Shown piece by piece: positions 16,554-31,316 of a DNA stretch of 31,849 nt. The DNA comes from an uncultured Candidatus Saccharibacteria bacterium. Its GTDB lineage: Bacteria; Patescibacteriota; Dojkabacteria; SC72. Where the stretch lies: NCBI GenBank assembly GCA_964648955.1, contig CAZYNJ010000003.1:1-31849 (forward strand), written 5' to 3'. How positions within the stretch are numbered: position 1 is the stretch's first letter; each line of letters opens with the position of its first letter. The translations under genes were made by a program, and so were the position numbers. Under the pieces are notes generated by a model. It was not told the origin of the DNA. It was given only the letters and a program-made list of their open reading frames with translations, and made no database searches.

Positions 16554-16582
16554 TTGCCAGGTCTATCTTTATGTGTTACAAT
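16554..16582 (+). promoter_or_regulatory. rRNA operon promoter
   Basis: TTGCCA (16554-16559), 17 nt, TACAAT (16577-16582), with an extended -10 TG. Confidence 0.8.
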
Positions 16583-16674
16583 CCTCTTCGAGTTTGGGAT
16601 AAACACATTTTTGTCAGGTTTCCTCTTAGAAGTTTTCTAATGAATACACGACTCTGTTGAACCCTCTCTCCGCT

Positions 16675-28137: not shown

Positions 28138-29484
28138 ATGAAATATACATGTACAACATGTGGGGCAGAATCGTTGAAGTGGGCGGGGAAATGTCCTGCT
28201 TGTGGGGAATGGGGGACATTAGAGGAGTTAAAGGAGAGTGCTTCAAAGAAAGAGATTGTATCAAAGGTCGATCCAGCAGTGTATCAATATCTTTTAGATG
28301 AGAAACAGGCTCTTTCTTCAAGAATATCTCGTACAAGTACGAGTATTTCAGAGTTTGATAGAGTTCTTGGTGGTGGCATTATCCCTGGGGAAGTAATTCT
28401 TGTTTCAGGGGAGCCTGGGGTAGGGAAATCTACCTTGTTACTCCAGATAGCATTGAATATAGCGAAGGAGGAAAAGGTGCTCTACATCGCAGGGGAGGAG
28501 TCTCCAAGCCAATTATATTCAAGGGTTGATAGATTGTTACCTAAAAAGGATCAAAGGGATAAGTTAAAGAAGAATCTTCTAGTTACAGATGAAATTAATG
28601 TAGATAAATTAGAATCTTTAATTTCAGCAGAAGAGTTTGGTTTAGTAATAGCGGATTCTATACAGAGTTTAGTCTCTGATAAAGCAAGGGGATATTCTGG
28701 GAGTATCGGACAAGTGAGGGTTGCTGGTGCGGTCCTGACTAGAGTTGCTAAAGAGACTGCAATACCGATATTAATGGTAGGTCAAATCAACAAGGTAGGG
28801 AATATTGCAGGTCCTAAGGTTTTGGAACATATTGTTGATTGTGTCCTATATTTTGAAGGAGGAAAGTTTAATCAGTACAGGATATTAAGAGGGATGAAGA
28901 ACAGGTTTGGTTCTACTAATGAGATAGGAGTTTTTGAAATGACATCCTTCGGATTAAAAGAGGTTGGAAATCCATCATTAGTATTTCTAGATGATGCTAA
29001 CAAGTCATCTGGTAGTGCGATTGGTGCAATTTTACAAGGCTCTAGAGTTGTTTTCGTAGAAGTACAAGCCTTGGTTGTAGAAAGGGAATATGAGGGTGGG
29101 CCTTTGAGGAGGGTCGCCAATGGTATTAAGAAGCCACGATTAGATATGTTATGTGCTGTTCTTTCTAGGAAAGGTGGAGTATTTCTTGGAAATATGGATG
29201 TCTTTGTTAACGTAGTAGGTGGATTAACAGTTACTAATCCCTCTCTAGACCTAGCAATTTGTGCTGCTATTAAGTCTGCAGTTAAGGACAAAGTCCTTAA
29301 TAGGGAGTCTATATATTTTGGAGAAGTTGGGCTTACAGGAGAGGTTAGGGGGTCTTGGGGAATAGATTCTGTATTATCAGAGGCGTCCAGAGTTGGTTAC
29401 AAATCTGCAATTGTTGGAAGGTCTAGGGTTAAAAGAGTGGGAGAGTTGTTAGTAAAGAAGATTTCGAAGCTTCCTACACTCTGA
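28138..29484 (+). CDS. radA: DNA repair protein RadA/Sms
   Basis: C4 zinc finger CTTC...CPAC, Walker A GEPGVGKST, KNRFG motif and Lon-like C-terminal domain. Confidence 0.96.
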   Translation: MKYTCTTCGAESLKWAGKCPACGEWGTLEELKESASKKEIVSKVDPAVYQYLLDEKQALSSRISRTSTSISEFDRVLGGGIIPGEVILVSGEPGVGKSTLLLQIALNIAKEEKVLYIAGEESPSQLYSRVDRLLPKKDQRDKLKKNLLVTDEINVDKLESLISAEEFGLVIADSIQSLVSDKARGYSGSIGQVRVAGAVLTRVAKETAIPILMVGQINKVGNIAGPKVLEHIVDCVLYFEGGKFNQYRILRGMKNRFGSTNEIGVFEMTSFGLKEVGNPSLVFLDDANKSSGSAIGAILQGSRVVFVEVQALVVEREYEGGPLRRVANGIKKPRLDMLCAVLSRKGGVFLGNMDVFVNVVGGLTVTNPSLDLAICAAIKSAVKDKVLNRESIYFGEVGLTGEVRGSWGIDSVLSEASRVGYKSAIVGRSRVKRVGELLVKKISKLPTL

Positions 29485-29655
29485 CTTTTTATTTTCAAAC
29501 AACCTATCCACTAGAAATGTAACACCGATTTCTTATAAAAGACTTCCGTAACATTAGAAAAGATTAGAAAAAGGAGGAGAGGGAGGACTGTTGTTCTATA
29601 GAGGAATATTGCACCTCAGATCTTTCCTGGGGGTAGGTGGATAAGGTTTATAGGA

Positions 29656-29684
29656 TTGACAGGGAATAAACTCTAAGGTATACT
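29656..29684 (+). promoter_or_regulatory. Near-consensus sigma70 promoter of the putative ncRNA
   Basis: TTGACA (29656-29661), 17 nt, TATACT (29679-29684). Confidence 0.85.
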
Positions 29685-29690
29685 CTTTTA

Positions 29691-29963
29691 GCACTTTTAG
29701 AAATGATTGTGGATATCATGAACTATATCTTTTGTCTGGGGGCGAAACCATCTGGGCAAAAGCTAGAGTTCATGATTTCTAATTCTTAGATTGAAGTTGT
29801 CTTCTTCTCCCAGGGTTTGGTGTGGCGAAACCATTTACTGAGCCCTTGGAAAAGAAGATAGGGAAGCATCTAAGGATGTTCTTCAATTTCTTTTATCTAC
29901 ATAATTATGTAGAAAGAAGAGACTGGGGTCGGTTGGGGCAGTACCGATCCCTACTTCTTTTTT
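29691..29963 (+). ncRNA. Putative unannotated structured ncRNA (~270 nt)
   Basis: Bounded by a consensus promoter and a terminator-like hairpin. Folds into long hairpins 29715-29776 and 29799-29859, both capped by GG-CGAAA-CC-A. No ORF of 60 aa or more. Confidence 0.6.
29925..29963 (+). terminator. Probable intrinsic terminator of the putative ncRNA
   Basis: GGGGTCGGT/ACCGATCCC stem (29925-29951) followed by TACTTCTTTTTT. Confidence 0.7.
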
Positions 29964-29970
29964 ATAAAGT

Positions 29971-29999
29971 TTGACTTCATTGTTTTGTTTCCCTATACT
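29971..29999 (+). promoter_or_regulatory. Sigma70 promoter of rho
   Basis: TTGACT (29971-29976), 17 nt, TATACT (29994-29999). Confidence 0.8.
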
Positions 30000-30056
30000 G
30001 AGTCATAGGCTGATTTTAAAAGCCCTAGCCATTATCTTAATTCCCTTACTATCATT

Positions 30057-31316
30057 ATGAAAGGTCTTACCATTAAGGATGTAGAGCAGAAAACTCTAGC
30101 AGAACTACGTACACAAGCAAAAAATTTAGGAATGAAAGATTTCATGGAACTTACTAAGAGAAGTCTTATGATTGGAATCTTGAGAGCATCAACCGAAAAA
30201 GATGGATATATATTCATTGAAGGAATATTAGATGTATTTAAAGAAGGAACCCACGGATTATTAAGAACAGATGGGGTACTTCCAGGAGAAAATGATGTAT
30301 ATGTATCAGGATCTCAGATAAAGAAATTTAGTTTAAGGACAGGAGATGTTGTTGCTGGTCCTGCTAGATTACCTAAAGACAAAGAAAGATATTTGAGTCT
30401 GTTAAGGGTTGATACTGTATATGGTAAACCCGCAGCAGATGCAGCAAAAAGGCCTGCATTTAAAAAACTTACTCCAATATTTCCTGAAAGACATATTAGA
30501 TTAGAGACTACACAAGAGGTTGTATCCACTAGGATGATAGACCTTCTCAGTCCAATAGGTTTTGGTCAGAGAGCTATGATTGTTTCTCAACCTAAGGCTG
30601 GTAAAACTTGGTTACTGAAAGATATTGCAGCTGGTATTGCAGAGAATCATCCTAAGGCAAAATTAATGGTCGTTTTGGTTGCTGAAAGGCCGGAAGAGGT
30701 TACTGATATGCGAAGATTTGTTAAGGGAGAAGTATTTGCTTCTAACTTTGATGAATTACCTGAGCATAACTGTAGAGTAGCTGAGATGGCATTACAAAAA
30801 GCAAAGAGAATGGTGGAATGGGGGGAAGACGTCATTATCTTAATGGATAGTATCACTCGTCTTGCTAGGGCTTACAATATTACAATGCCTACATCCGGGA
30901 AAACACTTTCAGGTGGTTTTGATCCTGTCGCATTGTATCCTCCAAAGAGATTTTTCGGAGCAGCTAGAAATTTTGAAGAGCAAGGGAGTTTAACAATTGT
31001 TGCTACTGCTTTAGTTGAAACAGGGAGTAGGATGGATGACTTAGTATATGAAGAATTCAAAGGTACAGGGAATATGGAACTTCATTTAGATAGATCTTTA
31101 GCAAACAGAAGGGTATATCCTGCAATCGATGTTATCAAATCTAGTACTAGAAACGAAGAGAAACTATTATCCAAGGAAGTTCTAAATCAATCATGGAGAA
31201 TTAGAAGAATGCTTGAGGTTTTAAATTCCAATGAGAATCCAACGGAGGTTCTAATTCATCAGCTTAAAAAGACAAAGAACAATGAAGAATTTCTTGCTAC
31301 TTTACACGAAGCATAA
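30057..31316 (+). CDS. rho: Transcription termination factor Rho
   Basis: Rho N-terminal and RNA-binding domains ([18 protein letters not shown]), Walker [19 protein letters not shown] and [13 protein letters not shown]. Confidence 0.97.

Follow-up and report, generated by a model that had tools for sequence, protein, structure and literature searches.

A conserved, structured RNA with its own promoter between radA and rho in Candidatus Dojkabacteria

In phage lambda, the nut sites (nutL and nutR) and the early terminators adjoin replication and recombination genes. In Escherichia coli, Bacillus subtilis and Caulobacter, the rho gene is preceded by autogenous leaders that act through Rho-dependent attenuation, and the known rho leaders consist of poorly structured, rut-type RNA located inside the rho transcript. 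Another RNA signal, the G.U/G-C motif found in ribosomal RNA (rRNA) and in the rpsO messenger RNA (mRNA), is recognized by protein S15. Here, we analyzed a 31,849-nucleotide (nt) stretch of DNA (contig CAZYNJ010000003.1; hereafter, the window) from an uncultured member of the order Candidatus Dojkabacteria (WS6, Patescibacteria), an organism that occurs in marine and salt-lake samples according to DNA sequencing runs. Between radA and rho, this window contains a promoter (P1) followed by two hairpin modules and a four-way junction, whose last hairpin (hp5) precedes a pyrimidine-rich tail; a second promoter (P2) separates this tail from rho (Table 1). Our analyses give good support to the conclusion that positions 29691-29963 encode a real, conserved and structured RNA whose family is uncatalogued.

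The RNA shares several features with the lambda nut sites and the leaders of rRNA operons (rrn), which are antitermination signals composed of boxA and a boxB hairpin and work with NusB-S10, NusA and NusG, since it is promoter-proximal, includes a hairpin with a sequence-conserved loop, and is common to host and phages. As with nut, its viral copies are located ahead of replication and recombination genes. The similarity extends to a pyrimidine-rich (G)CUCUUCGAU string 5' of hp5, which resembles the first half of boxA. However, boxA is a single-stranded protein site, whereas the similar string of this RNA is base-paired: we found no single-stranded boxA (consensus approximately GCUCUUUAACAA) 5' of the hairpin, as the CUUCRAU string is paired in helix B of the junction. 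Reading its CUUCGAU form as a boxA is not supported because this pairing is accompanied by covariation and the string is missing from the minimal forms of the RNA described below. In addition, hp5 has a 9-nt GGGGCAG loop instead of the GNRA-like pentaloop of boxB, no N-like protein is known for the RNA, and hp5 has its own U/C-rich tail, which makes it look like a terminator itself. It should be noted that two boxA-like strings, CCUCUUCGAG and CCUCUUAGAAG, are also found in the rrn leader of the window (16554-16640), where they immediately follow the promoter, and that CCUCUUCGAG resembles the CUCUUCGAU strand of helix B.

The autogenous rho leaders are comparable in that the RNA is a long non-coding stretch upstream of rho, conserved together with rho over a large evolutionary distance, with a C/U-rich and G-poor tail behind hp5. 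Unlike these leaders, it is a G-rich and highly structured RNA that starts from its own promoter and can persist away from rho, which has a separate promoter behind the RNA. No C-rich, G-poor and unstructured rut region was found in it, as it folds with a z of -6.9, its conserved parts are G-rich, and only the short tail is C/U-rich. The conserved P2 lies between the element and rho, and read-through is implied only in one genome (G050) and in one family (f37). As in terminator/antiterminator attenuators and in the RNAs that act in cis for processive antitermination (HK022 put and Bacillus EAR), mutually exclusive pairings involve a terminator stem just downstream of a strong promoter, and the RNA is also present in phages; in contrast, it matches neither put nor EAR of Rfam in sequence or structure, and the structure that competes with the terminator stem is a four-way junction with perfect pairing. 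The strong promoter, the terminator, the variable number of hairpin units and the sequence-invariant motifs are reminiscent of CsrB/RsmZ and 6S RNA. However, neither the multiple GGA motifs in hairpin loops that characterize CsrB/RsmZ nor a 6S-type bubble is present in this RNA, in which the conserved nucleotides, including a U.G/G.U/G-C motif, are within stems and the loops are variable. As for S15, the module core has an invariant G.U beside a G-C in a regular helix, as in the motif recognized by this protein; this is a resemblance only. The modules lack a three-way junction partner and any link to rpsO, and similarity to rRNA was not detected.

Conserved folding and covariation of the RNA

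Folding of 29691-29963 gave -105.2 kcal/mol, compared with -69.6 ± 5.1 kcal/mol for dinucleotide shuffles (z = -6.9; 0/200 shuffles as stable). The antisense strand of this 273-nt stretch folds less stably (-76.9 kcal/mol), and the sense strand was the more stable one in 24/24, 65/66 and 49/52 homologous segments, an advantage that fits G.U-containing RNA helices and not DNA palindromes. P1 is conserved in nearly all homologous loci, where it is preceded by a TATRRG element and a TGTGGATA motif, and this TATRRG+TTGACA architecture is unique within the genome. The RNA unit is present as one copy in this 640-kb genome, and no open reading frame (ORF) of at least 60 amino acids is encoded between radA (28138-29484) and rho (30057-31316). 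These results agree with the original prediction, made from the letters of the window, of an unrecognized structured RNA with its own promoter, which now has support from BLAST searches, covariance models and covariation. The two promoters that it had located (TTGACA-17-TATACT at 29656-29684 and the rho promoter at 29971-29999) are both present, as are the GC-rich hairpin with a U-rich tail (found here as a terminator-like hairpin at 29925-29951), the ORF-free stretch, and the two large hairpins at 29712-29779 and 29799-29859.

The two large hairpins correspond to modules that are repeated one to three times depending on the lineage, which bears out the modularity that had been proposed; the window has two, one of them diverged. 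Hairpin 2 is a type I module (CCC-N4-UYUGG...CUGRK-N4'-NGG) that scores 63.4 bits with our module model R2. Hairpin 1 is a diverged type II module, which has lost the CCC/GG base and falls below detection at E 0.01 with the same model. In an alignment of 66 module instances from 44 genomes, 93.9% of cells pair, compared with 72.8% after shuffling, the covariation score is 0.557, compared with 0.164 for shuffled alignments and 0.08-0.24 for slid partners, and 14/20 pairs show two-sided changes. Five pairs are near-invariant: C-G, C-G, U.G (66/66), G.U (65/66) and G-C. This pattern of sequence conservation suggests that the U.G/G.U/G-C core is probably a recognition site for a putative host factor. 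The module covariance model detected one or two hits in each of the 31/31 genomes of the order, all of them at this locus, which is present once per genome. The module is thus confined to this locus in 31 genomes and the RNA unit is single copy here, which rules out a repeat or mobile element; mimicry of rRNA was also discarded, as only chance 8-10-mers are shared with the rRNAs of the window.

The original prediction had also placed emphasis on the hairpin tips, since GGCGAAACCA is indeed present twice, at 29741 and 29824. Of these two hairpins, the stem cores are conserved, whereas the CGAAA tips are found in 0/48 relatives. The tips are the variable part of the structure, with UGG-N4/5-CCA or GUG...CAC and varied loops in relatives, and two copies of the GGCGAAACCA 10-mer (with up to one mismatch) were obtained in 13/100 shuffles of the window. 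Given the absence of GGCGAAACCA from 48 relatives and the variability of the tips, we reject the twin loops as a functional feature; the identical tips are specific to this lineage and perhaps derive from conversion between the two hairpins. Loop-loop docking similar to that of guanidine-II riboswitches is not supported either, since GGCGAAACC tips are present in 0/48 relatives and the tip loops vary freely.

The 3' half of the RNA folds into a perfectly paired four-way junction formed by helix A, hp3, helix B with hp4, and the top of hp5. In 52 sequences aligned to the fold model, 85.9% of cells pair, compared with 70.6% after shuffling, and the covariation score is 0.414, compared with 0.18 for shuffled and 0.11-0.13 for slid partners; this alignment was fitted to the structure and is hence biased towards it, and compensations are already visible in the MAFFT alignment. 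The three-way junction closed by TTGAAG/CTTCAA that had been drawn for this region has no counterpart in relatives; CTTCAA pairs instead with ACTGGGG to form the covarying helix B.

None of the known RNA classes that we tested accounts for this structure. A search of the whole window with Rfam 15 at the gathering score detected only rRNAs and transfer RNAs (tRNAs), in agreement with the earlier claim that no known class is involved, and a search of 29480-30060 at E values up to 10 gave only sub-threshold noise of the microRNA-type hairpin kind, as did the homologous locus L043. 6S RNA was discarded because RF00013 has no match in the genome or the region, and because the fold consists of tandem hairpins plus a four-way junction and not of a rod with a central bubble. 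RNase P RNA was found on another contig. Transfer-messenger RNA (tmRNA) is encoded elsewhere in 5/5 relatives; Aragorn detected no tmRNA in this 85%-complete genome. The RNA of the signal recognition particle (SRP) was also considered and rejected, as RF00169 and RF01854, the models for its small and large forms, have no match in this genome or in near-complete relatives, and as the fold differs from that of SRP RNA. Neither the Ffh M domain (PF02978) nor the Ffh/FtsY GTPase domain (PF00448) was found in this genome (G000) or in near-complete relatives (G001, G012, G021, G039 and G057), and across 121 Patescibacteria genomes the only matches to PF00448 were weak and confined to the P-loop. This points either to an SRP system that the phylum lacks or has in a very divergent form, or to a blind spot of these searches. 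A literature search on structured RNAs in Candidate Phyla Radiation (CPR) bacteria or Dojkabacteria, and on SRP in CPR, returned nothing relevant.

Conservation and alternative pairings of hp5

Within the class, the hp5 sequence GGGGUCGGU-YGGGGCAGU-RCCGAUCCC is invariant or nearly so, and its 27 nt are identical between families whose RadA proteins share only 36-60% identity. In other Patescibacteria lineages the stem is compensated (from UCGGU/RCCGA to UUGGU/GCCAA or GUGGU/GCCAC, or to a wholly different stem), while the loop is retained as GGGGCAG or UGGGCAG. The hairpin has the form of an intrinsic terminator, with a 9-base-pair (bp) stem at 29925-29951 followed by UACUUCUUUUUU, and the tails of relatives range from U8 to ACCCUUUAA. 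However, stem and loop do not vary freely as those of an intrinsic terminator would, given that 27 nt are identical across families and that the loop is kept across classes and in phages. This conservation argues that the hairpin is more than a terminator, and the pattern suggests that the GGGGCAG loop is probably a recognition site for a putative host factor. The core string of hp5 (GGTNGGGGCAGTRCC) also occurs by chance in coding DNA, where it encodes W-x-G-Q-C of the RadA zinc finger (L193, G200) or I-G-W-G-S-T of a lysozyme-like ORF (L197), so that hits of a pattern search need a check of their context.

At the base of hp5, the GGGG and UCCC strands have two options: pairing with each other, which completes the 9-bp stem, or pairing with CUUC in helix B and GGGA in helix A, respectively. 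Both of these helices show compensatory changes: AGGGA/UCCCU, CGGGA/UCCCG and AUCGGGA/UCCCGAU for helix A, and CGAU/AUCG, CAAU/AUUG and CGAC/GUCG for helix B, with counts at the CUUCRAU positions of GC 39 and AU 8, and of UA 41 and CG 5. A second choice involves the purine tract, whose partner is either the last module's 5' strand or the 3' tail; covariation is seen for each of these pairings. The duplex between purine tract and tail is worth -18.7 kcal/mol and has a consistent position in most relatives, whose tails covary with the purine tract and in several cases are poor U-tracts. For the RNA of the window, the closed module with the 9-bp hairpin has a predicted energy of -105.2 kcal/mol and the junction states have -98.1 and -100.3 kcal/mol; the two arrangements are close, with a difference of 5-7 kcal/mol. 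An alternative pairing is also present in family f37, which has neither modules nor junction: there, the 3' arm of hp5 and the next 7 nt can pair with sequence further downstream that overlaps P2, and three genomes show compensatory changes in this pairing.

Table 1. Features of the radA-rho region, with positions in the window
Feature	Position	Strand	Remarks
radA	28138-29484	+	upstream neighbor; Pfam RadA/Sms-type matches: Zn ribbon, KaiC/AAA_25, ChlI
DnaA-box-like site 1, TTATCCACC	29636-29644	-	one mismatch to TTATCCACA; 12 nt upstream of the P1 -35
Promoter P1, TATAGG element then TTGACA-17-TATACT	29649-29684	+	-35/-10 span 29656-29684; 11/12 consensus positions matched
Predicted RNA, ~273 nt	29691-29963	+	ends inferred: 5' from the -10 box, 3' from the tail
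DnaA-box-like site 2, TGTGGATAT on the + strand (ATATCCACA)	29708-29716	-	one mismatch to consensus; ~+18 of the RNA
Hairpin 1, diverged type II module (family consensus CCCUUUGUCUGGGG...CUGGGCAAAAGG)	29712-29779	+	inverted repeat; outer stem covaries, inner stem conserved
GGCGAAACCA tip of hairpin 1	29741-29750	+	0/48 relatives
Hairpin 2, type I module	29801-29857	+	model R2
GGCGAAACCA tip of hairpin 2	29824-29833	+	0/48 relatives
Purine tract GGAAAAGAAGAUAGGGA	29848-29864	+	3' strand of module basal stem, or 5' strand of helix A
hp3, small junction hairpin	29865-29880	+	5/5 pairs change on both sides; 94% of cells pair
Helix B (CUUCAAU/ACUGGGG) running into hp4	29881-29928	+	both-side changes in 18/21 pairs
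hp5, GGGGUCGGU-UGGGGCAGU-ACCGAUCCC	29925-29951	+	top 29929-29947 constant; base GGGG/UCCC can pair into helices B and A
Pyrimidine tail UCCCUACUUCUUUUUU	29948-29963	+	terminator U-tract and/or 3' strand of helix A
Promoter P2 for rho, TTGACT-17-TATACT	29971-29999	+	consensus-like match
rho	30057-31316	+	Pfam Rho_N, Rho_RNA_bind, ATP-synt_ab

Distribution in Patescibacteria and in viral contigs

BLAST searches found the RNA stretch in 54/61 related genomes. Among 48 loci from relatives at the family, order and class levels, the RNA is directly upstream of rho in 46, usually in the order clpC-radA-RNA-rho; in the remaining two, the available sequence stops short of rho or rho is not the next gene. 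In most Dojkabacteria loci, chiefly in the same family, P2 (TTGACW-17-TATACT) is found 10-35 nt behind the tail. The hairpin hp5 is found upstream of rho in Dojkabacteria families whose Rho identity is as low as ~63%, and several other Patescibacteria families have minimal forms at the same place, which consist only of a promoter and a hairpin of ~45 nt (a consensus promoter, ~10 nt and hp5, in some cases with a U-tract). In at least one of these other families (L161), the gene upstream of hp5 is not radA. A different arrangement was found in G050 (L045 2360-1715, - strand; the same region as L092), where the unit of module, junction and hp5 is tandemly duplicated behind one promoter; the first hp5 has no U-tract, and the second has U7 and a compensated stem (UUGGU/ACCAA). 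Since there is no promoter between the two units and the first hp5 has no U-tract, hp5 alone is insufficient to stop transcription there, and read-through is required.

An exact-pattern scan of IMG/VR gave matches in four contigs, three of which are real according to the covariance models: their scores with the junction/hp5 model are 57.7, 35.6 and 26.3 bits, and a single module scores 35.7 bits; the fourth was discarded as a chance match inside a lysozyme-like ORF. The viral copies consist of hp5, which a module or helix B may or may not accompany, and are intergenic, in early-type regions; the genes that they precede or separate encode replication initiators, RecE- and RecT-like proteins and an HNH endonuclease. 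In addition, one relative (G032) has a second hp5 on a contig that resembles one of the viral contigs.

Some further observations concern the expression signals around rho and in the rest of the window. At 30039-30045 of the window and in the rho 5' untranslated regions (UTRs) of relatives, the short UTR that starts from P2 shows a small GGG...CCC hairpin together with a conserved AAUUUCCC motif; the motif is 10-25 nt ahead of the start codon, and a Shine-Dalgarno sequence is not obvious. Few genes of the window have a Shine-Dalgarno sequence, although the 3' end of the 16S rRNA is the standard CCUCCU, and TATAAT-like boxes are located 7-25 nt ahead of many start codons (e.g., 3140, 3593, 25620, 28138 and 31368). 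mRNAs that have short leaders or are leaderless may be common in this organism.

Possible roles of the RNA

Our favored reading, to which we assign a probability of about 0.42, is that the RNA is a cis-acting element that controls transcription elongation. For this reading we infer control of termination, a factor that reads the hp5 loop, and rho as the regulated gene. Transcription would start from the strong P1, which is flanked by DnaA-box-like sites, and the nascent RNA could adopt one of two states. In the first, the base of hp5 would be self-paired, and the resulting 9-bp hairpin with its U/C-rich tail would be a terminator; in the second, the two strands of the base would go to different partners, one to helix B (CUUCRAU/AUYGGGG) and the other to helix A (GGGA/UCCC, lengthened by pairing of the purine tract with the tail), which would leave a 5-bp hp5 and a buried tail. 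The winning state would set whether the polymerase from P1 stops ahead of P2 or continues into rho; viruses would use this choice to set how much transcription reads through into their early genes for replication and recombination. A putative host factor, for which the GGGGCAG loop and the module core are probably recognition sites, would bias this choice. We favor this reading because of the toggling of the hp5 base, the deep linkage to rho, the read-through in G050, the poor U-tracts that are complementary to the purine tract, and the viral context.

Several observations weigh against control of elongation into rho. A near-consensus P2 is located right after the tail in most Dojkabacteria loci, which implies that rho does not need P1, and in the window and most relatives hp5 with its tail looks like a competent intrinsic terminator. 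The copy numbers of modules and hp5 vary, as they do in protein-sponge RNAs, and the reader of the hp5 signal would be a hypothetical factor. Two lineages (G040 and G172) have no recognizable hp5, although promoter and modules are retained upstream of rho. Finally, in G060 (L043, L188) an intact RNA with module, hp5 and U9 is located between clpC and rplJ-rplL, and rho is behind rplA without the RNA; this looks like a rearrangement with its breakpoint just after the RNA, in which the rplA-rplJ and RNA-rho junctions were swapped.

The conserved P2, the competent terminator in most loci, the variable number of units and the retention in G060 favor a stand-alone, abundant and trans-acting small RNA (sRNA), which we regard as nearly as likely as an elongation-control element. 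P1 would then fire, hp5 and the tail would terminate, and the freed RNA would bury its tail in helix A, while modules and hp5 would be binding sites by which a protein, perhaps a factor of transcription or termination, is scaffolded or titrated, and the gene would stay beside rho through synteny or shared regulation. A consensus promoter of its own, a terminator-like end with P2 conserved right behind it, a single-copy gene in 31/31 genomes of the order, and one to three modules with one or two copies of hp5 would all be expected of such an RNA, as would its intact state in G060 apart from rho; the placement of the 3' tail in a long helix is found in stable RNAs, and the invariant G.U pairs and loop point to recognition by a protein. 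However, an sRNA of this kind does not explain why the element is upstream of rho in very distant lineages, even with a different upstream neighbor, why minimal forms are reduced to a promoter and a ~45-nt hairpin, or why the alternative pairings of the hp5 base are under selection. The location of viral copies between co-directional genes is also less sensible for a trans-acting sponge, and no partner protein is known. The original prediction had likewise taken the RNA as a stand-alone transcript and not a leader; the conserved P2 and the one genome in which RNA and rho are apart speak for this view, whereas a role in cis is favored by the alternative pairings of the hp5 base and by the synteny with rho, which extends to distant classes. 

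The remaining explanations are far less probable. A ligand-sensing riboswitch that regulates rho, with the tandem modules as aptamers and hp5 as expression platform, would be in line with tandem homologous conserved hairpins and with a terminator that has a competing structure, and tandem U.G/G.U motifs are known metal-binding sites. We consider it improbable, as the modules are near-perfect rods (93.9% of cells pair) with no conserved internal loop or junction for a pocket, some lineages have only hp5 and others only modules, there is no match to an Rfam riboswitch, the element is also found in phages, and rho is not a typical riboswitch-controlled gene. The DnaA-box-like sites raise the question of whether the locus could act as DNA, that is, as a DnaA-box cluster with an imperfect palindrome (a replication-control or recombinase site, or a DnaA-titrating locus) in which RNA folding is incidental. 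Such sites flank P1 in the window and in relatives, in a genome with a background of 0.31 per kb: a TGTGGATA box is present at the site 1 position throughout the family alignment, both positions retain TGTGGATA in relatives, the site 2 position has a nearly invariant TGTGGATATC in the family, and perfect TTATCCACA boxes are found upstream of P1 in distant lineages; box sites are also present in L043 (2030-2080) and upstream of P1 in L067/L069/L157. From its sequence, this arrangement suggests a DnaA-box cluster or control of the RNA's promoter by DnaA. The locus also has a fairly constant distance to dnaA (70-120 kb in four near-complete relatives), and phage copies are beside replication initiator genes. 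However, the same distance led us to reject a replication origin beside dnaA, the sense strand has a G.U-dependent folding advantage (24/24, 65/66 and 49/52), the long-range helices A and B as well as the stems of the modules show covariation of the RNA kind, and the hp5 arms keep G.U positions and not true palindromy, all of which makes a DNA-level role even more improbable than a riboswitch. A (C/T)GTAACA motif, which may be a transcription-factor site, is repeated upstream of the DnaA boxes in the radA-rho spacer of the window (29518-29524 and 29547-29553) and of many relatives (L049, L050, L053, L054, L044 and L051). Lastly, the spacer could be nothing special, with a radA terminator, a rho promoter and chance hairpins, or with a leader peptide. 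A hairpin with a U-tract does lie downstream of radA, and the 28-codon ATG ORF (29703-29789) offered earlier as an alternative does exist. This explanation is for practical purposes already refuted by the conserved P1 between radA and the hairpins, by covariation far above the controls, and by the identity of the 27-nt hp5 where RadA is only 36-60% identical; the leader peptide in particular was rejected, since the ORFs of relatives differ in frame, length and sequence and none is conserved.

Returning to control of elongation, a more specific proposal, which we consider doubtful, is that hp5 and the accessory tandem-G.U modules would constitute a nut-like, factor-dependent termination or antitermination signal specific to Patescibacteria, whose reader would be encoded by the host, which would tune rho, and which phages would have adopted for timing their early replication and recombination operons.

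Gene regulation and non-coding RNA are barely known in CPR bacteria, whose members have tiny genomes and few regulators. Apart from rRNA, tRNA, RNase P RNA and tmRNA, few elements are kept in every genome of an order, and the RNA described here is one of them. If it gates transcription into rho, it would represent a new way of setting the termination capacity of a cell and would provide an experimental handle on transcription control in CPR bacteria and on their links with phages, as hp5 could be used as a marker for host assignment; whatever its function, it is a well-supported new RNA family that is fit for inclusion in Rfam.

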